Of a DNA stretch of 64,000 nucleotides, positions 37,150 through 63,051 are shown piece after piece. Source of the stretch: Candidatus Omnitrophota bacterium (GTDB taxonomy: Bacteria > Omnitrophota > Gorgyraeia > Zapsychrales > JANLHA01); assembly GCA_020632555.1 (NCBI GenBank), contig JACKFI010000001.1, forward strand, positions 133,152 through 197,151. The letters run 5' to 3'. The notes beneath the pieces are model-generated. The model made no database searches. It saw only the letters and a list, made by a program, of their open reading frames with translations, and was not told where the DNA came from. The stretch's first letter is position 1. Each line of letters starts with the position of its first letter. Both the position numbers and the translations under genes were made by a program.

Positions 37150-38545
37150 ATCGGGGAACCATTTAAAAGTAGTAAAAAAAGGCGTATCTTTCTGTTTGGA
37201 AATGTTTAACCGGGTTGACCCATGTCAGCCCAGAACAGAAAGGATACGCCCATGTACCAAACATTTGATACTTTAAAACATCGCGGAGCCGGGTCAAGGA
37301 TTTCATTAATTATACCCAACCGAAAGATTTTTGGATCGATATTAATATGCATCTTAGAAAACTAACCAAAAGTTTTATTGAAGAAACTCTCGACGAAGAA
37401 ATGACCCAATATCAACAACGAGAAAAACATCAGCGGTTAAAGAAAATGATCGATTACCGAAACGGACATTATCAACGCAACCTCGATACGACCATCGGCC
37501 CTCTTGATAATATTGCCGTTCCGCGTTCACGAAGCGGACTATTTAAACCTACGGTTTTTAAGCGTTACCAAAGACGCCAAGAAGCTGTTAACACCGTCAT
37601 CTGCAATGCCTTCCTGCGCGGCATATCCACCCGTGAAGTCGCTGGCGCTTTAAAACCAATCCTTGACACCAACATCTCCGCTTCCGCCGTCTCACGAATA
37701 ACAAAATCTTTAAATGCCCAAGTTAAAGCATTCCATCAACGTCAACTGCTCGACGAATATCAGTTTTTATTCCTAGACGGTATTGCTATCTCAGTCAAAG
37801 GAGCGCTTAAAGCCAAGAAAATTCTTGTCCTAACTGCTTATGGCATTACGATCTTCGGTAAAAAAGAGCTCATCGCCTTTAGAATCTCTAACAGCGAGTC
37901 AAATCAAGCCTGCGAAGGATTTTTAAATGATCTATTTAAACGCGGCCTGCAAGGCAAAAACCTTAAATTGATTATCACCGACGGGTCCAAAGGCTTTATT
38001 AACGCCGTCGACCTCGTTTACCCTCACGTCAAACATCAGCGCTGCTGGGTTCATAAACTTCGTAATTGCACTAAACATCTTAAGAAATGCGATATTGATG
38101 CATTTAAAAATGATGCCCGCAAGATTTACAATGCCTCGACTCATCGAGATGCTGTCGCGGCTTTTAAGAGTTTACGCCAACATTGGGTCAAAGATTATCC
38201 GCAAGTTGTCAAACTCATCGAACAGGATTTAGATAGTCTTTTGGCTTTTTTAGAAATTCCAATCAAGGAACAATACCGCGAATTTATCCGTCGTCGAATT
38301 CGTACAACCAACATCATCGAGCGTTCATTCCGGGAAATCAGACGCCGCACCAGACCCATGGGATGTTTTGCAAATATTGATAGCGTCAGCAGGATTATTT
38401 ATGCGATATTTAATCGCTTAAACACCAAATGGCAGGAGAAACCTTTAACCCAATTTACACAATTTATTTGACATTACCGCAAATTGAAAGGTGCGGTTAA
38501 AACAAGAAAACCCCGTCTCTCCTCGACGGAAAACAGGGTTTTATA
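37150..38545 (+). mobile_element. IS256-family insertion sequence (boundaries approximate; terminal inverted repeats not resolved)
   Basis: The transposase CDS has ~190 bp of upstream and ~70 bp of downstream non-coding flank. A 16-bp-stem long hairpin (GGCGTATCTTTCTGTT…AACAGAAAGGATACGCC) lies at 37196-37257. Confidence 0.4.
37347..38471 (+). CDS. tnp: IS256-family (Mutator-type) transposase
   Basis: 374 aa. Typical IS256 transposase N-terminus (…IEETLDEEMTQYQQREKHQRLKKMIDYRNGHYQRNLDT…) and DDE core. Confidence 0.85.
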   Translation: MHLRKLTKSFIEETLDEEMTQYQQREKHQRLKKMIDYRNGHYQRNLDTTIGPLDNIAVPRSRSGLFKPTVFKRYQRRQEAVNTVICNAFLRGISTREVAGALKPILDTNISASAVSRITKSLNAQVKAFHQRQLLDEYQFLFLDGIAISVKGALKAKKILVLTAYGITIFGKKELIAFRISNSESNQACEGFLNDLFKRGLQGKNLKLIITDGSKGFINAVDLVYPHVKHQRCWVHKLRNCTKHLKKCDIDAFKNDARKIYNASTHRDAVAAFKSLRQHWVKDYPQVVKLIEQDLDSLLAFLEIPIKEQYREFIRRRIRTTNIIERSFREIRRRTRPMGCFANIDSVSRIIYAIFNRLNTKWQEKPLTQFTQFI

Positions 38546-38548
38546 TTG

Positions 38549-38562
38549 GTTGCGGGGACAGG
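38549..38562 (-). repeat. 14-nt direct copy (TTGCGGGGACAGGA) of the tRNA-Met 3' end, att-like
   Basis: Exact match to 38731-38744 (tRNA acceptor/T-stem 3' strand), ~170 bp downstream of the tRNA 3' end. Confidence 0.45.
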
Positions 38563-38695
38563 ACCTGCCTACCGGCAGGCAAGTTTGAATGGTTTCGCGG
38601 CTTCGCTTACGCTCAACCATTTCCTCGCCTAACGGCTCGGTCACCTGCGCTCGCTTTCGCTCGCTGCACGTCCATTCACCCATCCCACTAATAAA

Positions 38696-38725
38696 TTAAG
38701 AAGGCCCCAATTGGGGCCTTCTTAA
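38696..38725. terminator. Perfect 13-bp-arm palindromic hairpin TTAAGAAGGCCCC-AATT-GGGGCCTTCTTAA immediately 3' of tRNA-Met
   Basis: Read directly from the sequence. GC-rich stem flanked by A/T runs on both sides (bidirectional terminator-like). Confidence 0.55.
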
Positions 38726-38730
38726 TTTAA

Positions 38731-38804
<74 letters not shown>

Positions 38805-38834: not shown

Positions 38835-39050
38835 CCGCGGCACTTCCTCGGGTATTAAGCGTCTGTCGGCCTCGCCACGGTGGGCTCGGCACTCCTTCGC
38901 ACTTTACGTGCTCAGTCGCCCGCTTTGGTACTAAATACATCTTAATATAACGGCGGCACTTCCTCGGGCATTAAGCGTCTGTCGGCCTCGCCACGGTGGG
39001 CTCGGCACTCCTTCGCACTTTACGTGCTCAGTCGCCCGCTTTGGTACTAA
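38835..39050. repeat. 2 x 100-bp near-identical GC-rich tandem repeat (16-bp spacer) between tRNA-Met and the ftsB-eno operon
   Basis: 38835-38934 and 38951-39050 differ at 2 positions. Unit: CGGCACTTCCTCGGG(T/C)ATTAAGCGTCTGTCGGCCTCGCCACGGTGGGCTCGGCACTCCTTCGCACTTTACGTGCTCAGTCGCCCGCTTTGGTACTAA. Confidence 0.6.
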
Positions 39051-39230
39051 TGCTATCTTTTGATACTATAAATATCTTTAAATCTTTATGCAGATCCCCA
39101 ATAAAATCCTTCGGGGATGACAACTAATTAGGATTGCCGCGCCCCTTCGGGGCCCGCAATGACAAATCTTTTCGATTTGGTTCTCGTCGAAAAGGGACTC
39201 ACTGCGTTCGCAATGACAACACTTCTAATT

Positions 39231-53320: not shown

Positions 53321-55126
53321 TTAAAGCTTCTCAATACGCCGGGCCATATCGGCCAAATGCATAGTCGCCAGACGATCCAATTCATCAGGACCGGACTTGA
53401 GCAACAAAACACGCTCATAAAACGCGATCGCTTTTTCCCGTTGCCCCAGCATTTGATACGTTGAAGCGAGGTTAAATAAAGCTTCTTTCAAATTTCCATC
53501 TAATGAAATTGCTTTTTCGTAATACTCAATGGCCCGCCGGGGATCAGATAATTTCGAATACAAAATCCCCAAACTATGGTAACCGCGCGCATTATCGGGT
53601 TTTTCTCTCATCAAACGTTCATAATGTGAAACCAAAAACAATTCCGTAGACTTGATATTATCGTCAAGCAAGTTCTTCAAATCGCCCGGATCGGTAATCT
53701 TATCATATTCGCGCAAACCTTCCCAAAACTTACCTTGATCACATAAGGATTTACCCAAACCAATGCGCGCCCGGATATTAAAAGGTTCAACATCCAAAAC
53801 TTTTCGAAAATTATGTTCAGCCAGATCAAACCGATTGCGCTTAGCATAAGATAAAGCCAAAGAATTGCGAATACGCGTATTGGTCGGATTAATGGACAAA
53901 GTGCGCTCGAACATTGCGATTTCATTGCTGGAATAAATGTTGTATTGAATCGTTAAAAGAATCAAAAATAAAGAAAACCCTATCACACCAGAGCGAATCA
54001 TGAAAGGAGAAATCAATTTACGGCGCGCACAGGCTTTTTTGTAATGCTCAAAGAGCACCATGGCTAAAACAAAAATACCAATGCTGGGCACATATAAAAA
54101 ATGCTCCGCTGTTGAAATATAGCCCGGCTGGACTCCCACTGTTGTAATAATCTGAGAAACAGGTAAAAGTTCAATAAAAAACCAGCTCACACAAAAAGCT
54201 TGCAACCCTGTGATTTTCTCGCGCTTAATCCAAGCCATCGCCATTAAGGCCAAGAAAAATAGCACAGTCAGAATCACCTGAGTGTCCATGAAACTAATAA
54301 AAATCGGCTGAGAACGATCAAAATAAAGATCAACCGGAAAAATGAAAAGGCGCAAATCGATGATCACACTTTTTAAAAATGTCAAAAAACCCAAAACCAT
54401 TTCACTCGCCGATCGCCACGGAAAAGTTCTCGTAATGCCTAAAATATGGCGTATCCCCAAATAAACTCCGGCGACAGCAGCGTAAGGAACAAGGCCAACG
54501 AAAAGTTTTTTAAAATGAAAGCTTTGTTTTTCCTTAATAAAATAAGAATAACTTAAAAACACCAATGGAAGAATACCCGCGGATTCTTTGCACAGCAGCG
54601 CCAAAGCAAACGCGATCAGTGAAAAATACGAATAATATTTCCGGCGGTCGGAATAAATAAAAAAATAAAATGACGCCAGCCCATAAAAAGCGCACAAAAG
54701 AATAGAACGCCCGGGAATATTAGACACCGCCTCCCATTGAATCGGATGCAAAGCAAACAAAAATGCCGCTCCCAAGGCCATGGCTCGTCGATCTGTCAAA
54801 GCAAAAACAATCGCAAAAACCCAGAAAGCGTTGAGAATATGAATAAGAATATTGTCTACATAATACGGAACGGGATCGAGTTTAAAAAAATGGTATTCCT
54901 TCATAAAACTCAGCGTAACCAATGGCCGATAATAAGCCTCCCCACTAAAAAAAGCGCTGGTCATCACTTTGGGAATATTACGAAAACTGCGAACATCTTC
55001 ATTGCGGACAATTGAATAATCATCATCCAGCGTCTTAAAAGCGCCATTAATGCTAAACGAATAGACAAAACATGTCATAAACGCCAACAAAATCAACCCA
55101 ACAAGTGTTTTACGTTTTTCAATCAT
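53321..55126 (-). CDS. TMTC-like membrane glycosyltransferase (GT-C/PMT_2-like polytopic N-domain + C-terminal TPR repeats), paralog A
   Basis: 601 aa. ~10 N-terminal TMs with a DUF1736-like region. C-terminal 5-6 TPR units (…ALSYAKRNRFDLAEHNFRKVLDVEP…). Confidence 0.65.
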   Translation of the reverse strand: MIEKRKTLVGLILLAFMTCFVYSFSINGAFKTLDDDYSIVRNEDVRSFRNIPKVMTSAFFSGEAYYRPLVTLSFMKEYHFFKLDPVPYYVDNILIHILNAFWVFAIVFALTDRRAMALGAAFLFALHPIQWEAVSNIPGRSILLCAFYGLASFYFFIYSDRRKYYSYFSLIAFALALLCKESAGILPLVFLSYSYFIKEKQSFHFKKLFVGLVPYAAVAGVYLGIRHILGITRTFPWRSASEMVLGFLTFLKSVIIDLRLFIFPVDLYFDRSQPIFISFMDTQVILTVLFFLALMAMAWIKREKITGLQAFCVSWFFIELLPVSQIITTVGVQPGYISTAEHFLYVPSIGIFVLAMVLFEHYKKACARRKLISPFMIRSGVIGFSLFLILLTIQYNIYSSNEIAMFERTLSINPTNTRIRNSLALSYAKRNRFDLAEHNFRKVLDVEPFNIRARIGLGKSLCDQGKFWEGLREYDKITDPGDLKNLLDDNIKSTELFLVSHYERLMREKPDNARGYHSLGILYSKLSDPRRAIEYYEKAISLDGNLKEALFNLASTYQMLGQREKAIAFYERVLLLKSGPDELDRLATMHLADMARRIEKL

Positions 55127-56927
55127 TTTTTTTCTCTGCCTGGTTAAGGTAATTTTCTACCGCTTTTAAATTCATATCCCCATCAAACTTTTCTTGAGCT
55201 TTTGCCAATACCGTCCGCGCTTGCGGCAAATCACCGGCCTCAATGTTAATATGTATCACAAAAACATAAGCCAGTACCGATTGAGAATCAACTGCCATGG
55301 CCTGCAAAGCACAATCTTTTGCCGACACATAATCTTTTTTAATCAAATAATTCCTCGAAAGCTCCAAATACAATCCCGAAAAACCGGGAGCCAACTCAAT
55401 GGCTTTCTTCAAATAACCAATCGCGGCGTCGGGAGTAGCAGCCGCTTTACTTAGAAGATGATAAGTCATAAATTTTTCTTTGTCACTGGAAATAAACGGA
55501 TTATTCATCGCGACTTTAAGATGTTGTGTAAGATATTTAACCGCCTGCGGCGAATGACCTGCCAAATAACTATCCAAGCCTAAAATCCAATACGGGCGAG
55601 AACTATCCGGATACCGGCGAATCATTTCGCGGCAAGCCACAAAATTATTTCTAAAGAAATCATTATTGGCAATGGTTAAAATAATCAAAAACCCTGTCCA
55701 AACTCCTGGCAATATCAATCTCATGTTCAACGTAATATGTCGTCGAGTAAACCACTGCGCAAGATGGTCTATACCAATCGCAAATAACAAAAAAAATCCA
55801 ATCGACGGCAAATACAAGAAACGAAATGCTAAAGGATTAAGCAAAGGAAAGATCCCAGAAGCCGGGAAATAATTGACAAAAAACCACACAAACCCAAAAG
55901 TAATAATTTTATCGCGTCGAAAAAAATTAACGGCTAAAATTATGGACAATAAGCTAACAACCAACGGCACCATCAATTCCCAAATCGGCATTGGAAAAAT
56001 TGGCGGGGCATACAAGGGAGGAAGAACAGAAACTTTAAACGGCAAAACCAGCGCCACGCAGTACTGTAAGAAAAGTTTAAGCATCAAGACAATTTGCGCT
56101 AAACCTTTTAAAGCATAAGGCGAAGGCTGTAAATAAAATACATTAGGAATTAAAATGAAGTACACACATAAATAAAAGATCGTGATTCCAGCCAAAACCG
56201 CGTAAAGCCCCTTCTTTTGACCAAGAATCTGTCGACCCTTTTGCGCTGAAAGAAAGAACCAGTCGACAATAAAAATAATAAATGGAAAAGTTACTGCTGT
56301 TTCTTTTGAAAACAAAGCCAAAAAATATGACACTCCGACAAGACCAAACCAGAGGCCTTTTCTTTTAGCCTCACTAAAGCGCGCATAAGCTAAAACCGCG
56401 CACAAATAAAACATCGTCATCAAAATATCCGAACGATACCCGCTGGCATTGACAACTTCCGACTGAATTGGATGGACTGCGAAAAAACTTGCCGCCCAAA
56501 AAGCTATTTTTTTATTGCCGGAAATCCGCAGGATAAAATAAAAAACCAAAATGCAGGTCAAAAAATGAAGAAATATATTACTAAAATGATGCCCCGTCGG
56601 ATTGTTCTTCCATAAAGCGTAATCTATAAAAAAGGTCGCAGCGCTAACCGGACGATAAGAAACGCACCCGGAAAAAGATTGAGTCTTTTGTGAAGCATCA
56701 TAAGTCGACGGATTCATGACCAAATCTTGTGAGAAAATCTTTGGGAAATTGGTCAGACTTTTATAAAATTCATTGCCGCTAAAAAGAGCCTTGTCGTCGC
56801 CAACAAAGTCATTTTGCAAACAATTGTGAAAAGCGGCTGCAACAAAAAGCGCTAAAAGAAAAATAATTAATCGATTGGTGAAGGGAATTTTTGTGAAGGA
56901 AAAATTTTTCAAGGCACGAAGAATCAA
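55119..56927 (-). CDS. TMTC-like membrane glycosyltransferase (GT-C + TPR), paralog B
   Basis: 602 aa. Same architecture as paralog A. Overlaps it by 8 nt (operon). Confidence 0.65.
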   Translation of the reverse strand: MILRALKNFSFTKIPFTNRLIIFLLALFVAAAFHNCLQNDFVGDDKALFSGNEFYKSLTNFPKIFSQDLVMNPSTYDASQKTQSFSGCVSYRPVSAATFFIDYALWKNNPTGHHFSNIFLHFLTCILVFYFILRISGNKKIAFWAASFFAVHPIQSEVVNASGYRSDILMTMFYLCAVLAYARFSEAKRKGLWFGLVGVSYFLALFSKETAVTFPFIIFIVDWFFLSAQKGRQILGQKKGLYAVLAGITIFYLCVYFILIPNVFYLQPSPYALKGLAQIVLMLKLFLQYCVALVLPFKVSVLPPLYAPPIFPMPIWELMVPLVVSLLSIILAVNFFRRDKIITFGFVWFFVNYFPASGIFPLLNPLAFRFLYLPSIGFFLLFAIGIDHLAQWFTRRHITLNMRLILPGVWTGFLIILTIANNDFFRNNFVACREMIRRYPDSSRPYWILGLDSYLAGHSPQAVKYLTQHLKVAMNNPFISSDKEKFMTYHLLSKAAATPDAAIGYLKKAIELAPGFSGLYLELSRNYLIKKDYVSAKDCALQAMAVDSQSVLAYVFVIHINIEAGDLPQARTVLAKAQEKFDGDMNLKAVENYLNQAEKKND

Positions 56928-56951
56928 ATTTTAATGAAACATCAAAAAACA

Positions 56952-57024
56952 AGCTGGCGGTCAGGGTTGAACTGACGGCCTGCGCATTACGAATGCGCTG
57001 CTCTACCGACTGAGCTACGCCAGC
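56952..57024 (-). tRNA. tRNA-Thr (anticodon CGU)
   Basis: Minus strand reads GCTGGCGTAGCTCAGTCGGTAGAGCAGCGCATTCGTAATGCGCAGGCCGTCAGTTCAACCCTGACCGCCAGCT. Anticodon loop TTCGTAA. No encoded CCA. Confidence 0.85.
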
Positions 57025-57490
57025 GAATTACCTTAAAATAATCAAAACAAACCTTAAGAAAAATTCGCCAGTACTGTTTTCCTTATATCTTTTTACAGAA
57101 AAAACAGTGCGCCAGCAAACTTCCACTAAACTTACAAAATTTACCCTTAGAACAGTTTGCCAGTACTGCCTTCTACTTTTACTATCTTGAGAAGGCATGT
57201 ACGCCAGCGAATTACCTTAAAATCATCAAAACAACCTTAAGAAAAATTTGCCAGTACTGTTTTCCTTATATCTTTTTACAGAAAAAACAGTGCGCCAGCA
57301 AACTTCCACTAAACTTACAAAATTTACCCTTAGAACAGTTTGCCAGTACTGCCTTCTACTTTTACTATCTTGAGAAGGCATGTACGCCAGCGAATTACCT
57401 TAAAATCATCAAAACAAACCTTAAGAAAAATTTACCAGTACTGTTTTCCTTATATCTTTTTACAGAAAAAACAGTGCGCCAGCATTTACA
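57017..57490. repeat. ~183-bp tandem repeat x 2.6; each unit begins with the first 8-10 nt of tRNA-Thr (ACGCCAGCG)
   Basis: Unit starts at 57017, 57201 and 57384, >95% identical. Each unit contains the internal inverted repeat ACTGTTTT…AAAACAGT and two GCCAGTACTG boxes. Confidence 0.7.
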
Positions 57491-57503
57491 TCAAATTTTT
57501 CGC

Positions 57504-57650
57504 GGGAAACCGGGACATCACCCACCGAACAACATTGCACCAAACTAAAAAAAAAGAATGGTGCCGAGACTAAGGGATTGTTGTGGGAAACCGGGATTTC
57601 ACCCACCGAACAACAAAGCACCAAACTAAAAAAAAGAATGGTGCCGAGAC
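57504..57650. repeat. ~81-bp tandem duplication; each copy ends with the last 12 nt of tRNA-Phe (TGGTGCCGAGAC, i.e. ...GTCTCGGCACCA)
   Basis: 57504-57570 vs 57585-57650. The second copy's end is the genuine tRNA 3' end. Confidence 0.65.
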
Positions 57651-57714
57651 CCGGAATTGAACCGGGGACGCACGGCTTTTCAGGCCGTCGCTCTACCGAC
57701 TGAGCTATCTCGGC
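57639..57714 (-). tRNA. tRNA-Phe (anticodon GAA), CCA encoded
   Basis: Minus strand reads GCCGAGATAGCTCAGTCGGTAGAGCGACGGCCTGAAAAGCCGTGCGTCCCCGGTTCAATTCCGGGTCTCGGCACCA. Close to E. coli tRNA-Phe. Confidence 0.88.
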
Positions 57715-57973
57715 ACAACTGCTGCTACAAATAAAAGGTTGCTACCTTAGAAGTTTTGCTTTGAATAGCTTTTGTCCCGCTTGCGGGACTGAGCTACTCA
57801 AGCGTTTGCATCTAAATCTTTTCTGAGAAAACGCCAGTGCCGCACAATTAGCGGCGCTCGGCACAACTATCTTTTAAGATATTAAATCCAAATCAAAGAC
57901 CAGTGATTCTATCCAACCTCATCCCAAATGTCAACCGCGAAAGCCCACAACGACCACCGCGACACAATCACAA

Positions 57974-58375
57974 CTACGGATGCGACCGTTGAACAATCTT
58001 GGTATAAATATCCTGAGCTAATTTAATTCTTGGCATCATGCCCCGACGAGCTTTGACTCGTAGTTTTACAGTATCTGCGACCGGTTCAGCCACTGTCACC
58101 GTAATATGAGCCCCAGAAACCTTAGCAACAACCACTCCGGCAATTTCATTCTTCTCTTCAATCAGCCCCATAATGGATACTGTATCAACCGCGGCCTGCC
58201 AAATATCCTGCATGGTATATCCACTGACCATGCCCTCAACCGTGTCTGGACTAATCGCATAACCGCCCAAAGCCCCGACGCCGCCAATTACCAAATAAAA
58301 ACAGCCACTGCCGGTCAATAAAAATAAAACCAACGCTATCGAAAAAAAACTTTTCTTAACAGAAAACCTTTCCAC
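57974..58375 (-). CDS. Small lipoprotein (DUF3568-like)
   Basis: Lipobox LLTGSGC. 133 aa. Confidence 0.45.
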   Translation of the reverse strand: MERFSVKKSFFSIALVLFLLTGSGCFYLVIGGVGALGGYAISPDTVEGMVSGYTMQDIWQAAVDTVSIMGLIEEKNEIAGVVVAKVSGAHITVTVAEPVADTVKLRVKARRGMMPRIKLAQDIYTKIVQRSHP

Positions 58376-58562
58376 CCTTTATCTCCCAACCAAATGAGCA
58401 ATCCATTACAGCGTCAAGATTTTTGCTTATCCCTTGCAAGGCTTACGGCCATGATTGGCTTTTTTTGATCGCCAATTCAATTTGCCAACTTTACTTTTAC
58501 GTCCCATTCTGATCCCCTCCTTAATAATTTAAGGTACCATCGTACTACGCGACACGAAAAAA

Positions 58563-59216
58563 TCAAAGCAAAAATTTTCTCACCTGATAAACATTCTCAA
58601 CTACGGCCAAAGGCTTTAAAGCTGTTAATTCTGCAATTGTACTGGAACCTGTTGCTACCGCTACGGTTTTAACTCTCGCCCGCCGGCCGGTCAAAACATC
58701 AATCCCCATATCTCCCACATAGAGAGCTTGAGACGGCTTGAGCTTAAACTTCTTTAAAATCGCCTTAAGAATATCCGCCGCCGGCTTAGGACGCGCCACC
58801 TTATCCCCACATAAAACATAATCGAAGAAAATATTGATTTTTAAATACCTTATCGCAATCAGCGAAAACTTAGTCGGGCGATTGCTGGCCACTGCGATTC
58901 TTAATCCTTGCGCCTGCAAATATTGTAGAATTTTCAACGCGCCCGGCAATAGCTTGGTATCTTTGCGCAAAGCTAAAGCATGATGCTGTCGATAAACACT
59001 CAGCGCTCGGTCAATATCTTTGTCTCCGATTTTGTCCCCCAGAAAAGACTGCAACAAATGCCGGTCACCCCAACCCACTGTGCGTTTAATCGTCGAGTGC
59101 GCAATTGGGGCAAAACCAAATTTATCGACGGTATAATTGACACTGCGATAAACCGCCGGATAAGCGTTCATCAAAGTCCCATCAAGATCAAAAACAACAA
59201 GTTTGATTTTTTTCAT
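58563..59216 (-). CDS. HAD-superfamily hydrolase (subfamily IA, phosphoglycolate-phosphatase-like)
   Basis: Motif I VVFDLDGTL, motif III/IV …VGDMGIDV…. Confidence 0.8.
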   Translation of the reverse strand: MKKIKLVVFDLDGTLMNAYPAVYRSVNYTVDKFGFAPIAHSTIKRTVGWGDRHLLQSFLGDKIGDKDIDRALSVYRQHHALALRKDTKLLPGALKILQYLQAQGLRIAVASNRPTKFSLIAIRYLKINIFFDYVLCGDKVARPKPAADILKAILKKFKLKPSQALYVGDMGIDVLTGRRARVKTVAVATGSSTIAELTALKPLAVVENVYQVRKFLL

Positions 59217-59376
59217 AGTCGAATATTATAATTTAGAAATATTTTAGAAACTCATCTTATCATCGATTAACTAAATTGCTTGCCTTAGTGCTACAATTTT
59301 ATTTCGATGCTAAGACAAAAAAATCCCGCATGCCGATTTTCCAACATGCGGGATTGTGACGCAATGACTAATGAAC

Positions 59377-62300
59377 TTACAACTTGGGCGAAAGAACAAT
59401 AACGCCAGATTTTACAGTACTGGTATCCTGATCTTGCGGATAAGCCGCAACAACCGTATCTCCACTTAAAGCAATACTCTGCCCAAAATTGAGAATACCG
59501 GCTCCTGCTAAATTATACGCCCAGGCAAAAGAATTATTGGCCTGACGTTTAAAAACAATCACTGAATCCGTTGTATGTATCGAACCTAACGAGAAGGTTT
59601 TAGGATGCATCGCAACGGCGACAGTATTGTCTTTGGCCGTAAGGCTGATAATCGCACTGCTCGAATGCCACGGCAAGCTTAAGCGAGAATACGATGTATT
59701 CCACGTGCTAACCGGCGCTCCATACGGAGCATTGCGCATTTCATTAAAAATAAAAACATTACTCAAAAGAGTAATATCAGGAACAGCACTCAACGCAACA
59801 ATAAGCTGATGACCAACAACCTTGGTTGCCGTCAAAACAGCCTCAGCATTCTGCGGCGTTAATAACCCTATCTCTTGACCAAAATTAGCTATATCGTTTT
59901 CATACGTTTTTTCTAATGTCCAGAGACCTTGTCCTTTGTAACGATAGATAAAGATTTTACTCTTTTCGGTTTCCGAAGCTTTGGGCGCGCCAACTGCAAT
60001 AATCCCATCACCGACAGCTACCGATTGAGCAAATTGAACTTTACCAGCTTCCACTCCAGACAACTTCAATGTGGCCGCATAAGCCCATGCACCATTGTTA
60101 CGACTGATCACATACACAACTTTAGCCGACGGTAAAGAAACCGCCAAGCTGTCTGACGAAAGAGCCAGTTTCATATTACTAACTAAAGCTGGATCTAAAT
60201 TATCAATTTTACTAAGATCCAATTTATTGCCAGCTTGAACCCAAGCATTATTAACTTTGGAGAAAAAATAAAGACTGCTCTGCGCTTGCACAACCAACGC
60301 ATCTTTATTAGCCGCCAAAGTCTTGCCAAACTGATCACCATCTGCCAAACCTACAGGCGCGATAATCGCGGGCACAGGCACAGACTGTGTTGCATCAACA
60401 GGCATGCTCTTATATTGATAAACAACACCTTTGCCATTAACACTAGGGGCTCCGACGAATAATTCATTGCTCTCTTGCAAAACAGCAACGCTTTGCGCAA
60501 AACCAATGTTAAACTGCGGCGTTGCCAAACGGCCTGCTGACAGATTATCCAAATTGCTATAATACTCACCAACCGTGATTTTATCAGCTGGCTTTTTTAT
60601 AGCAGCAATAAATGAATCCATCACAAATTTTGCTTTCGCAGGATCTTTTAATGCCCAAATATTTTGAAAATACTTATTCATTGCATACTTTGTGTTCCAA
60701 AGCATTTTACTATCATAATAGTTACCAACGTTTGTTTTATCTGCCGGATTAAGAACTACGGCTATAATGGATTCCATCACAAACTTCTCTTTGGCAGGAT
60801 CCTTCGCCTGCGCCAAAATCGAAACATAACTATTGATTGCCGCTTGAGCTTTAAGCACAGCCGTTTGATCATAATACTGCCCAATTGTGGTTTTATCCGC
60901 AGGATTTAAAACTGTGGCCAACAATGATGTCATCACAAACTTCGCCTTAGCTGGATCTTCGTTCCCAGCCGATAAAACTGTGAAATAATTGTCAATCGCG
61001 ACTTTCGCTTTTGTCACCGCCACTTGATCCAAATACTGACCAATTGCGGTTTTGTCGGCAGGATTTAAAACTGTGGCCAACAATGATGTCATCACAAACT
61101 TCGCCTTAGCTGGATCTTCGTTCCCAGCCGATAAAACTGTGAAATAATTGTCAATCGCGGCTTTCGCTTTTGTCACCGCCACTTGATCCAAATACTGACC
61201 AATTGCGGTTTTGTCGGCAGGATTTAAAACTGTGGCCAACAATGATGTCATCACAAACTTCGCCTTAGCTGGATCTTCGTTCCCAGCCGATAAAACTGTG
61301 AAATAATTGTCAATCGCGGCTTTCGCTTTTGTCACCGCCACTTGATCCAAATACTGACCAATTGCGGTTTTGTCGGCAGGATTTAAAACTGTGGCCAACA
61401 ATGATGTCATCACAAACTTCGCCTTAGCTGGATCTTCGTTCCCAGCCGATAAAACTGTGAAATAATTGTCAATCGCGGCTTTCGCCTTTGTCACCGCCAC
61501 TTGATCCAAATACTGACCAATCGCGGTTTTGTCGGCGGGATTTAAAACCGTCGCAATCACTCTATCCATAACCAATTTTGCATTAACTGGATTTTGTACC
61601 GCAGCCAATAAAACCTGAAAATAATTATCAATTGTAATTTTAGAATTTGTTACCGCAGATTGATTGTAATAATCTCCAACAATCGCTTTTTCTGCAGGAT
61701 TCAAAACTGCAGCAATAGCCGAATCCATCGCCAGTTTTGCTTGCGCTGGATTTTTGGTAACAATCAACAATGTCGCAAAATAATCATCAATCGCAGCTTT
61801 AGCTTTATTAACAGCCATCTGAGACATTCCAATGCTGTAATAATTTGCAACAATGGTTTTGTCAGCAGCATTAAGAACCGTCGCCATTACAGCCTCCATA
61901 ACAGCTTTTGCCGTTGCTGGATTTTGCCCAGCGGCCAAAGCAGAAAAATAATTATCAATCGCAACTTTGGCCTTCACAATAGCTGTTTGGCCGTAATAAT
62001 TATTAACAATAAGTCTATCCGATGGATTAAGAACCGCCGCCATAGCGGCTTCCATGACAGTTTTCGCTATTGCTGGATTTTGCGCAGCCATCAAAGCAGA
62101 AAAATAATTATCAACCGCAGCTTTGGCCTTCACAATAGCCGTTTGGCCGTAATAATTATTAACAATAAGTTTATCTGATGGATTAAGAACCGCCGCCATA
62201 GCGGCTTCCATGACAGTTTTCGCTATTGCTGGATTTTGCGCAGCCATTAAAGCAGCAAAATACTTATCAATCGCCGCTTTGGCCTTCACAATAGCCGTTT

Positions 62301-63051
62301 GGCCGTAATAATTATTAACAATAAGTCTATCTGATGGATTAAGAACCGCCGCCATAGCGGCTTCCATGACAGTTTTCGCTATTGCTGGATTTTGCGCAGC
62401 CATCAAAGCAGCAAAATAATTATCAACCGCCGCTTTGGCCTTCACAATAGCTGTTTGGCCGTAATAATTACTAACAATAAGTTTATCTGATGAATTAAGA
62501 ACCGCCGCTATAGCGGCTTCCATGACAGTTTTCGCTATTGCTGGATTTTGCGCAGCCATCAAAGCAGCAAAATACTTATCAATCGCAGCTTTGGCCTTCA
62601 CAATAGCTGTTTGGCCGTAATAATTACTAACAATAAGTTTATCTGATGGATTAAGAACCGCCGCCATAGCGGCTTCCATGACAGTTTTCGCTATTGCTGG
62701 ATTTTGCGCAGCCATCAAAGCAGCAAAATAATTATCAACCGCCGCTTTGGCCTGAATAATAGCTGTTTGACCATAATAATTATTCACGATAGATCTATCT
62801 GCCGTGTTAACTACGGCAGCCATGGCCTGATCCATTGCAACCTTAGCTGCTGATGGATTCTGTCCACTCAACAAGACGCTAAAGTAATTGTCAATAGCCA
62901 CTTTAGCAGCTTCGACAGAAGTCAACTGCACTGCTGTCCCCACACTTGAACTTTGAGCATACACCATACTGGGCAATGCCAGCATGCCAAAACCAGCGCA
63001 CGCTCCCAACAATACAACAACAACCTTCTTAACCAAACTCTTTCGATTCAT
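59377..63051 (-). CDS. Large secreted repeat protein: ~20 tandem 48-aa alpha-helical repeats + C-terminal FG-GAP (integrin-alpha-like beta-propeller) repeats
   Basis: Signal peptide. Repeat unit NYYGQTAIVKAKAAVDNYFAALMAAQNPAIAKTVMEAAMAAVLNPSDKLIV. C-terminal QFGKTLAA, FAQSVAVGDG, FGQEIGL, FGQSIALSGD (FG-GAP-like). Confidence 0.7.
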   Translation of the reverse strand: MNRKSLVKKVVVVLLGACAGFGMLALPSMVYAQSSSVGTAVQLTSVEAAKVAIDNYFSVLLSGQNPSAAKVAMDQAMAAVVNTADRSIVNNYYGQTAIIQAKAAVDNYFAALMAAQNPAIAKTVMEAAMAAVLNPSDKLIVSNYYGQTAIVKAKAAIDKYFAALMAAQNPAIAKTVMEAAIAAVLNSSDKLIVSNYYGQTAIVKAKAAVDNYFAALMAAQNPAIAKTVMEAAMAAVLNPSDRLIVNNYYGQTAIVKAKAAIDKYFAALMAAQNPAIAKTVMEAAMAAVLNPSDKLIVNNYYGQTAIVKAKAAVDNYFSALMAAQNPAIAKTVMEAAMAAVLNPSDRLIVNNYYGQTAIVKAKVAIDNYFSALAAGQNPATAKAVMEAVMATVLNAADKTIVANYYSIGMSQMAVNKAKAAIDDYFATLLIVTKNPAQAKLAMDSAIAAVLNPAEKAIVGDYYNQSAVTNSKITIDNYFQVLLAAVQNPVNAKLVMDRVIATVLNPADKTAIGQYLDQVAVTKAKAAIDNYFTVLSAGNEDPAKAKFVMTSLLATVLNPADKTAIGQYLDQVAVTKAKAAIDNYFTVLSAGNEDPAKAKFVMTSLLATVLNPADKTAIGQYLDQVAVTKAKAAIDNYFTVLSAGNEDPAKAKFVMTSLLATVLNPADKTAIGQYLDQVAVTKAKVAIDNYFTVLSAGNEDPAKAKFVMTSLLATVLNPADKTTIGQYYDQTAVLKAQAAINSYVSILAQAKDPAKEKFVMESIIAVVLNPADKTNVGNYYDSKMLWNTKYAMNKYFQNIWALKDPAKAKFVMDSFIAAIKKPADKITVGEYYSNLDNLSAGRLATPQFNIGFAQSVAVLQESNELFVGAPSVNGKGVVYQYKSMPVDATQSVPVPAIIAPVGLADGDQFGKTLAANKDALVVQAQSSLYFFSKVNNAWVQAGNKLDLSKIDNLDPALVSNMKLALSSDSLAVSLPSAKVVYVISRNNGAWAYAATLKLSGVEAGKVQFAQSVAVGDGIIAVGAPKASETEKSKIFIYRYKGQGLWTLEKTYENDIANFGQEIGLLTPQNAEAVLTATKVVGHQLIVALSAVPDITLLSNVFIFNEMRNAPYGAPVSTWNTSYSRLSLPWHSSSAIISLTAKDNTVAVAMHPKTFSLGSIHTTDSVIVFKRQANNSFAWAYNLAGAGILNFGQSIALSGDTVVAAYPQDQDTSTVKSGVIVLSPKL
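60600..62940. repeat. Intragenic 144-bp tandem DNA repeats (two subfamilies; several copies 100% identical)
   Basis: e.g. identical 144-bp units through 60990-61500 and a second subfamily through ~61930-62760. Confidence 0.7.

Follow-up and report, generated by a model that had tools for sequence, protein, structure and literature searches.

Why should the spacer between two tRNA genes be filled with extra copies of the ends of those same genes? The question is raised by a stretch of 64,000 nucleotides from a Candidatus Omnitrophota bacterium (contig JACKFI010000001.1; hereafter the window), in which the genes for tRNA-Thr(CGT) (56952-57024) and tRNA-Phe(GAA) (57639-57714) lie on the minus strand with 614 nt of repetitive DNA between them. 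We find that this Phe-Thr spacer consists of conserved RNA hairpin cassettes in tandem, bearing copies of tRNA ends, and that the array arose by local duplication and not from a virus or an island. As an explanation we favour, with reasonable but by no means full confidence, that the spacer consists of transcribed, duplicated and structured RNA cassettes under selection, which expand and contract by recombination between the repeated tRNA ends.

Both tRNA genes were recognised by ARAGORN and by Rfam (tRNA-Phe with 73.1 bits), and CCA is encoded in tRNA-Phe but not in tRNA-Thr. As both lie on the minus strand, the order of transcription is tRNA-Phe, spacer, tRNA-Thr. A sigma-70-type promoter (TTGACA-17 nt-TAGAAT, 11 of 12 matches) at 57934-57906 on the minus strand is the only sigma-70-like site of the tRNA strand that precedes the array without falling in a coding region; a second minus-strand match (58099-58070, within the upstream 133-aa gene) is weak, with 9 of 12 positions. 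An equivalent promoter precedes tRNA-Phe in four related loci (L005, L006, L007 and L009). Scanning of the repeat units on the tRNA strand gave neither a sigma-70-like promoter nor an intrinsic terminator, and with one strong promoter in front, the region is therefore read as a single transcription unit. The initial annotation had considered slipped duplication of tRNA promoter or terminator modules; the tandem duplication is borne out, but the units are structured, conserved leader and trailer RNA cassettes and not such modules.

Using Tandem Repeats Finder (TRF), we recovered the 183-bp unit described earlier, repeated 2.6 times at 57016-57484 (98% matches, score 910) and starting with the first nucleotides of tRNA-Thr as had been claimed, together with a 92-bp half-period inside it (67%) and an 81-bp unit repeated 2.0 times at 57504-57668 (83%). 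The real period of the larger array is about 92 nt: read along the minus strand, five cassettes of two alternating types follow one another in the order A-B-A-B-A, each beginning with GCTGGCG(T/C)A, which is nt 1-9 of tRNA-Thr (at 57483, 57391, 57299, 57208 and 57116), and the sixth occurrence, at 57024, is the genuine start of the gene. Cassette A0 (57392-57483) is made of GCTGGCGCA, a hairpin H (ACTGTTTT/AAAACAGT), TACTGGTAAA and a hairpin T. Cassette B1 (57300-57391; 111.7 bits) begins with GCTGGCGTA, and contains hairpin H (57384-57347, TAC.TGCCTTCT/AGAAGGCA.GTA), the motif CTGGC (57346-57342) and hairpin T (57346-57295), which is closed by GCAAACU/AGUUUGC and by CUGG/CUGG wobble pairs. 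Cassettes A1 (57209-57299), B2 (57117-57208) and A2 (57025-57116) follow, all on the minus strand, and the T hairpin of A2 (GCGAAUU/AAUUCGC plus CUGG/CUGG) takes in nt 1-5 of the genuine tRNA-Thr. Each 183-bp unit consequently has four hairpins instead of the one 8-bp stem first described. The GCCAGTACTG boxes that had also been pointed out are present in the array as four exact copies and one with a single mismatch; allowing up to one mismatch, the whole window holds 11 matches against 1.5 expected, and the box is the antisense of CAG-TA-CTGGC, that is, of the junction between a hairpin and the CTGGC motif.

On the tRNA-Phe side it is the other end of the gene that is repeated. The last 12 nt of tRNA-Phe, GTCTCGGCACCA (57650-57639), recur at 57570-57559, both copies run into TTCTTTTTTTTAGTTTGGTGC... 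with 58 nt at 88% identity, and 23 nt covering the tRNA-Phe end and the T-rich trailer are identical between 57548-57570 and 57628-57650. Phe trailer unit 1 (57559-57638, minus) is composed of the T-rich trailer, UGGUGC, a hairpin, a degenerate T-arm and the pseudo-3' end, and unit 2 (57484-57558, minus) has the same trailer and hairpin (88%) without a pseudo-3' end, so that of the two 81-bp units said to end in the tRNA-Phe 3' end both exist but only one carries it. Unit 2 terminates in GATGTAAAT, the native leader end of tRNA-Thr, and a comparable gttgtaaac precedes tRNA-Thr in the 17-nt spacer of L009. Units homologous to the Phe trailer unit are found in L006, with a 21-nt copy of the tRNA 3' end, and in L013.

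Copies of tRNA ends had been placed within the spacer, where most of them are, but others lie upstream of tRNA-Phe. A tRNA-Phe pseudo-start, AGTTGTGCCGAG (57868-57857, minus), exactly repeats 12 nt, namely the 5-nt leader and nt 1-7 of tRNA-Phe, and its GTGCCG pairs as a 5' arm with CGGCAC in a hairpin; ahead of the tRNA-Phe of L009 the pseudo-start is longer (22 nt). Next comes the tail of an S-type tRNA-Thr leader, CTGGCG-TTTTCTCAGAAAAGATTTAGATGCAAAC (57804-57837, minus), displaced upstream of tRNA-Phe; in L006 and L007 the S tail stands immediately before tRNA-Thr, and the displaced tail shares 89% identity with it. A C-type cassette (57715-57803, minus) then opens with a degenerate 16-nt Thr pseudo-start, GCTtGaGTAGCTCAGT (57803-57788), continues with the GC hairpin CCCGCAAGCGGG (57787-57776) and leads by an A-rich tail into tRNA-Phe. 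C cassettes with an intact 16-nt Thr pseudo-start occur in L013, at least three in tandem before tRNA-Thr and one before tRNA-Phe, and the C cassette of L009 bears a Phe pseudo-start. Cassettes thus fall into A and B types of about 92 nt, a C type of 79-89 nt in which CCCGCAAGCGGG comes after a pseudo-start of either tRNA-Thr (16 nt) or tRNA-Phe (22 nt), and an S type of 57 nt, GCTGGCGT-CCCGAAAACGGG-ACTGGCG-TTTTTTCTnAGAAAAGATTTAGATGTAAAC.

None of these copies is a decayed tRNA gene. The Rfam tRNA model matched the two real genes only, at E up to 1, ARAGORN found none besides, likeness to the tRNA stops at nt 9 (nt 16 in C cassettes), and the only tRNA-like feature retained by the Phe trailer unit is its degenerate T-arm; we therefore rejected degenerate whole tRNA copies. 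Rfam covariance models returned no family other than tRNA, either at E up to 1 for 55000-60000 or at the gathering score for the whole window, and neither RtT nor a T-box or other known tRNA-sensing leader was matched. Three further candidates were set aside: small open reading frames in the repeats (51 and 56 aa, tRNA strand), the frame of which is broken in the L013 cassettes; a CsrA-type GGA sponge, as GGA is not conserved and reads GGU in A-type cassettes; and a common origin of H and T from a single 45-nt unit by divergence of its copies, which was not significant (z = 1.4, 2.2 and -0.6), with the sole exception of the L006 H against the S tail (z = 3.9).

What the cassettes have in common is their fold. 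RNAalifold, applied to ten distinct A/B cassettes from four genomes, predicts the two stem-loops H and T in each leader cassette of about 92 nt. Counted on an unfitted MAFFT alignment, paired cells make up 92.8%, a share that falls to 34-58% once the partners are slid, and compensatory changes affect 6 pairs and 17 cells, a level reached by none of 500 shuffles. About 23% of the paired cells are G-U; on the opposite strand these would be A-C, and the fold is therefore that of the tRNA-sense RNA. T is closed by a stem that joins CUGGC and the next 4-5 nt to the last leader nucleotides and nt 1-5 of the following start or pseudo-start, and this stem differs by type yet remains complementary: GCAAAC/GUUUGC in B, GCGAAUU/AAUUCGC in A, GCGUUU/AAACGC in S and GCAAGU/ACUUGC in L011 and L016. 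The closing pairs of H use U8-A9-C10 of the pseudo-start. In the Phe trailer units, UGGUGC is able to pair with the GCACCA 3' end of the tRNA and is kept in the window, L013 and L006, a pairing in which the fixed tRNA end leaves no room for covariation. Captured tRNA ends thus serve as structural strands in the helices of the cassettes, and for this reason a tRNA end accompanies every cassette that is copied.

The T-hairpin loops of 57025-57483 show an invariant UUCU, a Shine-Dalgarno-like AGG and, 6-9 nt later, an invariant UUUG; UUG often stands directly before UAA, and the A cassettes read AUG-AUU-UUA-AGG-UAA. These motifs could be start-stop mini-open reading frames or a protein-binding motif.

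Structured or not, repeats of this kind might be a neutral by-product, spacer DNA generated by slippage or unequal crossing-over in which hairpins and tRNA ends are accidental to the end-points of duplication. Such an origin would agree with the near-identity of the 183-nt copies, with copy numbers that are very different among relatives, with the lack of the array in some of them and with the lack of a match to any known RNA family. The 183-nt array was indeed amplified recently, as the 98% identity of its copies shows. Between species, however, cassettes of the same type are far more alike than neutral DNA should be, taking fourfold sites of the neighbouring gene as neutral reference and the tRNA-Thr trailer as non-coding control. 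The B cassette is 92-93% identical between the window and L013 (98% in the T part), where fourfold sites are at 63% and the trailer at 78%, and 74-75% identical between the window and L006 (85% in the T part; fourfold sites 39%, trailer 67%), and the S cassette of L013 is 93-95% identical to those of L006 and L007 (fourfold sites 40%, trailer 62%). Cassettes of the same type group across genomes and not within genomes; the A and B types are older than the split of the window and L006 lineages; the stems stay paired through compensatory changes; and the loop motifs UUCU, GGU, UUUG and GG are invariant or nearly so. The excess of identity over fourfold sites and trailer, together with these motifs, indicates purifying selection on both sequence and structure, and we regard a neutral origin as unlikely, although still the best placed of the alternatives. 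The cassettes are in this respect unusual: they are structured and conserved where synonymous sites are saturated, yet they are variable in number and dispensable.

Relatives of the locus were collected by means of the 602-aa protein encoded just downstream of tRNA-Thr, and are metagenome-assembled genomes of Omnitrophota, some of them labelled "uncultured Planctomycetales". The enolase encoded in the window shows 100% identity to one recorded under the name "Candidatus Omnitrophica bacterium". What stays constant among the relatives is the order of lipoprotein gene, promoter, tRNA-Phe, spacer, tRNA-Thr and 602-aa gene, with identical flanking genes, and it is the length of the spacer that varies: 17 nt in L009, 22 nt in L005, 174 nt in L007, 403 nt in L006, 614 nt in the window and about 1003 nt in L013 (84% amino acid identity; the locus has a scaffold gap). 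The comparison of relatives that the initial annotation had proposed consequently does reveal copy-number change, and it gave no occupied island and no integrase at any of these Phe-Thr loci. In a deeper branch tRNA-Thr has its own promoter. There, the empty locus L008 has the promoter, a 14-nt leader and then tRNA-Thr, and in L011 and L016 the same type of promoter and leader abuts a decayed pseudo-start (GCTGGCC or GCTGGTC), after which come a hairpin, a tail homologous to the S type and the genuine tRNA-Thr, so that these three loci form a clean presence/absence set. The distance from the promoter to the first pseudo-start in L011, L016 and the window equals that from the promoter to the tRNA in the empty L008 and L005, which also speaks for one transcription unit. 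Occupancy is patchy on a tree spanning 55-91% identity of the neighbouring protein, and the more distant L017 has no cassettes. In L017 a 157-aa membrane-protein open reading frame (852-1418) lies between tRNA-Phe and tRNA-Thr, in place of cassettes. A metagenome scan with the neighbour-protein profile yielded one locus only, L011.

Clean presence and absence in close relatives (L008 against L011 and L016; L007 against L006 for the Phe unit) is also what miniature non-autonomous elements, similar to miniature inverted-repeat transposable elements or other hairpin elements, would produce if they targeted tRNA ends and made target-site duplications. The H and T hairpins are both flanked by direct repeats of CTGGC, and a Thr-type tail stands upstream of tRNA-Phe in the window, as would befit a mobile element. 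The direct repeats, however, measure 6, 9, 16 or 21-22 nt, with no fixed target-site duplication, and the would-be terminal inverted repeats covary between types, which points to selection for pairing and not to a transposase site. The displaced copies are all within about 1 kb in the same operon, for which local recombination suffices, the 18 nt common to both tRNAs being an example of the homology available. Moreover, a cassette nhmmer profile and the covariance model R1 matched nowhere but in Phe/Thr arrays (216 kb and 206 kb searched, consisting of the window and its relatives, with 64 kb from this genome), which also goes against a generic dispersed repeat, the finding by which the initial annotation had said it could be refuted. 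Insertion of such elements is, in our view, decidedly improbable.

One of the readings offered by the initial annotation was that the duplicated tRNA 3' ends are the footprint of integrase-mediated insertion and excision. They would then be attachment-site (att) duplications of islands or phages that have since been almost entirely deleted. As with the att duplications of tyrosine integrases, a segment from the 3' part of a tRNA is directly repeated: the copy of the tRNA-Phe 3' end, CCA included, lies 80 nt downstream, and in L006 the 21-nt copy flanks an 81-nt insert, with the distal copy followed by a native trailer like that of L007. The same genome also has an integration-type footprint at tRNA-Met (see below), where relatives carry integrases. 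At the Phe-Thr locus, though, this att-like feature is present for the single Phe unit only, and the captured ends are mostly 5' ends, copied by the Thr cassettes. Both 3'-end copies of the window precede the same trailer, which identifies duplication, because after an integration only one of the copies would run into native DNA, and the other into DNA of the element. In addition, no recombinase gene was found within about 5 kb or in the locus of any relative, the flanks are syntenic, the inserts are homologous and conserved between species, and two cassette patterns scanned against viral contigs gave no match. We therefore hold an integrase footprint here to be very improbable indeed.

Equally improbable is that the units are independent small genes or tandem promoters, with the AT-rich tail of each cassette acting as a promoter that fires at the start or pseudo-start and so producing either multiple starts for tRNA-Thr or a row of short RNAs. 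The most conserved part of the cassette does lie directly upstream of the (pseudo)start, and CTGGCA resembles, on inspection, a -35 or a sigma-54 -24 element, but the array has no sigma-70-like match on the tRNA strand and no -35/-10 pair before the units, the canonical upstream promoter is kept in all occupied loci, and stem covariation that includes G-U pairs indicates a transcribed RNA. The sigma-54 reading was rejected, again by inspection only, as the distance to the start is 33-44 nt and there is no GC -12 element. On the antisense strand, TTGCCA-17-TACTAT sites (9 of 12 matches) occur in both B cassettes, at 57157-57185 and 57340-57368 (plus), and recur in the B1 cassette of L013; antisense promoter-like sites are at chance level, with 5 found against 2.0 +/- 1.2 expected.

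That the array is an assembly artefact, by repeat-induced expansion or mis-join in a metagenome-assembled genome, can practically be dismissed: short-read contigs of the same population do end at both array edges (the tRNAs contain the first nucleotides of L004, L012, L014 and L018 and the last of L001) and L013 has a scaffold gap and a possibly chimeric start, but breaks at the edges are the expected outcome of a real repeat, homologous arrays of the A, B, S and C types were assembled independently in L006, L007, L011, L013 and L016, and L001, an independent short-read contig, agrees exactly with the window over the part that runs from upstream of the promoter into tRNA-Phe, including the Phe pseudo-start, the leader tail and the Thr pseudo-start. 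In L013 the contig opens (1-309) inside an A-type Thr cassette array upstream of tRNA-Phe, a gap of 100 N lies in the C-cassette array (1168-1267), and a 36-nt sequence common to two C cassettes would offer a possible route to a mis-join. There is a practical side to this, as such arrays break short-read assemblies exactly at tRNA genes and may pass for scars of island integration.

How, then, could such an array be built and maintained? In the duplication model that we favour, the region would be the leader and spacer of a two-gene tRNA operon (promoter, tRNA-Phe, spacer, tRNA-Thr(CGU)), the transcript of which probably continues into downstream glycosyltransferase-like genes, and small RNA hairpin cassettes would have multiplied in it through local tandem duplication, as suggested by the trailer that the two copies of the Phe 3' end have in common and by the 98% identity of the 183-nt units. 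A cassette presumably cannot be copied without the tRNA 5' end, since the closing helix of T uses nt 1-5, and the trailer unit would be the mirror image, its UGGUGC pairing with GCACCA at the 3' end of tRNA-Phe. Repeated ends of 6-22 nt would then provide homology for unequal recombination or replication slippage, by which arrays could grow, shrink or be deleted precisely, hence spacers from 17 nt to about 1 kb among relatives. Selection for tRNA function would be maintained only on the copy joined to a whole tRNA body, and the outermost pseudo-ends would decay, as in tandem duplication followed by random loss. In organelle genomes, this last process leaves pseudo-tRNA remnants beside tandem repeats. 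The present locus resembles the organelle case in having end-points inside tRNA genes, one copy kept intact and partial copies that decay, but organelle remnants are neutral and quick to decay, whereas here the material between the copies is structured and conserved well above neutral.

As to function, thermodynamic predictions offer a lead. In the minimum free energy fold (ViennaRNA) of every occupied locus, the true 5' end of the tRNA is held in a T hairpin and the 3' acceptor strand pairs with an upstream pseudo-start, this sequestering fold being predicted to beat the cloverleaf by 1.3-5.2 kcal/mol, while the empty L009 precursor folds straight to the cloverleaf. We infer from this that the cassettes may act in cis on the precursor, as decoy acceptor strands and alternative helices for the tRNA termini, and that they would determine how tRNA-Thr(CGU) folds, how it is processed and how much of it is made in comparison with tRNA-Phe. 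Because the predicted folds sequester the true 5' end and the 3' acceptor strand, they suggest more particularly a decoy or anti-acceptor action on the processing of tRNA-Thr(CGU) by RNase P; the downstream mRNA may perhaps be affected as well. Alternatively or additionally, the cassettes may be released as small stable RNAs, by analogy with rtT of E. coli tyrT. A bolder proposal, which we put forward only tentatively, is that the A, B, S and C types together form an undescribed family of cis-acting or excised small RNAs of an Omnitrophota clade, the decoy 5' acceptor strands and terminus-sequestering helices of which would control how the rare-codon tRNA-Thr(CGU) folds, its processing by RNase P and its output, and perhaps also that of the co-transcribed glycosyltransferase-like genes, with a copy number tunable by recombination. 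If the cassettes act on precursor folding, this would be a rare bacterial case of cis-regulation of tRNA maturation by decoy acceptor strands and, if true, would give a concrete handle on the RNA biology of uncultured Omnitrophota.

Several points weigh against the selected-cassette explanation. The function of the cassettes is entirely a matter of what we infer. Duplication leaves the origin of the first cassette unexplained, as empty loci hold no hairpin sequence to duplicate, and one has to suppose either that it was first inserted or that it was ancestral and then lost repeatedly. Cassettes are absent from L005, L008, L009 and L017 and are therefore dispensable for making tRNA-Thr. The covariation comes from ten distinct but related sequences of four genomes, and in the closing helix of T five pairs out of nine are invariant. 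Finally, the copy number of 2.6 in the window is unconfirmed, as the array interrupts the short-read contigs, and in L013 the repeats may have caused a mis-join of the first 300 nt.

Arrays that capture tRNA 3' ends have been known since E. coli tyrT, the repeat region of which yields a processed small RNA, and the present locus adds a 5'-end version. Checked with TRF, tyrT-tyrV of E. coli MG1655 has a 178-bp unit repeated 3.1 times (95%), with aatccttcccccaccaccatcactttcaaaag repeated and about 20 nt of the tRNA-Tyr 3' end in each unit, annotated as rttR/tpr. In both cases the array directly follows a tRNA gene in the same transcription unit, and the Phe trailer unit likewise consists of a tRNA 3' end with CCA and then the same trailer. 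Unlike tyrT, however, there are here 2.0 such units, one of them bearing the pseudo-end, and most of the Omnitrophota array captures the 5' end; unlike rttR, to which Rfam (RtT included) gave no match, the units have no homology to it in sequence or structure, and unlike tpr, the small open reading frames of the window are not conserved in L013. A literature search for tRNA repeats that capture 5' ends returned nothing relevant, and we know of no precedent for such arrays. The processed small RNA of the tyrT repeat region is the subject of a preprint (bioRxiv 10.1101/2024.07.17.603846). Another functional transcribed spacer of a tRNA operon is leuZ's 3' external transcribed spacer (ETS), a small-RNA sponge, whereas no stable 5' ETS or internal transcribed spacer has been reported (both according to PMC8166272). 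Like the cassettes, spacers of the 3'ETS-leuZ type are conserved non-tRNA segments of a polycistronic tRNA precursor; they act as RNA during or after processing, as the cassettes may do, and unlike the cassettes they are single short segments, with no tandem array and no copies of tRNA ends.

Elsewhere in the window, an initiator-type tRNA-Met (38731-38804, minus; C1:A72, no CCA) gives an instructive comparison. Its last 14 nt (TCCTGTCCCCGCAA) are repeated at 38563-38550 (region 38547-38804). The distal copy runs into CCA and the native terminator, as after the tRNA-Met of L021, and the proximal end is followed by about 167 nt of different DNA, with a strong hairpin and a GC-rich segment, so that the native 3' end and terminator are displaced by 167 nt. 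As the DNA after the two 3'-end copies is different, an integration-type footprint is supported at tRNA-Met, and L021 and L022 have integrase genes downstream of the same tRNA. No known RNA family was matched in the tRNA-Met region. An IS256-family transposase gene (Transposase_mut, E = 1e-89) occupies 37347-38471 (plus), just past the displaced 3' end. Directly upstream of tRNA-Met, at 38837-39050, lies a GC-rich 116-bp tandem repeat (1.8 copies, 98%), every unit of which holds GTGCCGAG, an 8-mer of the tRNA-Phe start; at this position L022 has a single, shorter hairpin version (GCGGGCGACCGAGGACTTAATGTCCGAGGAAGTACCGCCG) and L021 none. The leader tails of tRNA-Met (...TCAAGATAAAC) and tRNA-Thr (...TTAGATGTAAAC) are alike. 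Between the 116-bp repeats and a DivIC-like gene, at about 39090-39225 (minus), three short related elements begin with (T)TGTCAT(TGCG/CCCC) and have a small hairpin behind them; they resemble a family of short palindromic repeats.

Downstream of tRNA-Thr, TTGTTTTTT leads to the gene of the 602-aa membrane/TPR protein, which starts about 25-40 nt past the tRNA (56912-56952). No promoter-like site lies between the two, and their adjacency is retained in all relatives, even those without tRNA-Phe, and for these reasons the gene is probably co-transcribed with the tRNAs. This downstream flank has two tandem paralogous membrane/TPR proteins of about 600 aa and an MFS transporter, and the upstream flank has a 133-aa lipoprotein-like open reading frame and a HAD hydrolase. 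Pfam gave the 601-aa paralogue clear TPR repeats and a weak PMT_2 match, and found no significant family of its own for the 602-aa protein; over the flanking open reading frames as a whole it returned MFS, TPR, HAD, an unknown lipoprotein and a repeat protein. Further upstream, a secreted-looking protein of 1224 aa (59377-63051, minus) is built of repeats of about 52 aa with FG-GAP-like repeats at the C terminus, and at 60865-62801 its gene contains tandem repeats with units of 156 and 159 bp that reach 98% identity. The plus-strand GC skew is negative across the whole window, and all genes examined in 52-63 kb, as well as most of those examined in 36.5-41 kb, are on the minus strand; the uniform skew and the gene orientation suggest that the window lies within a single replichore, with its genes co-directional with replication.

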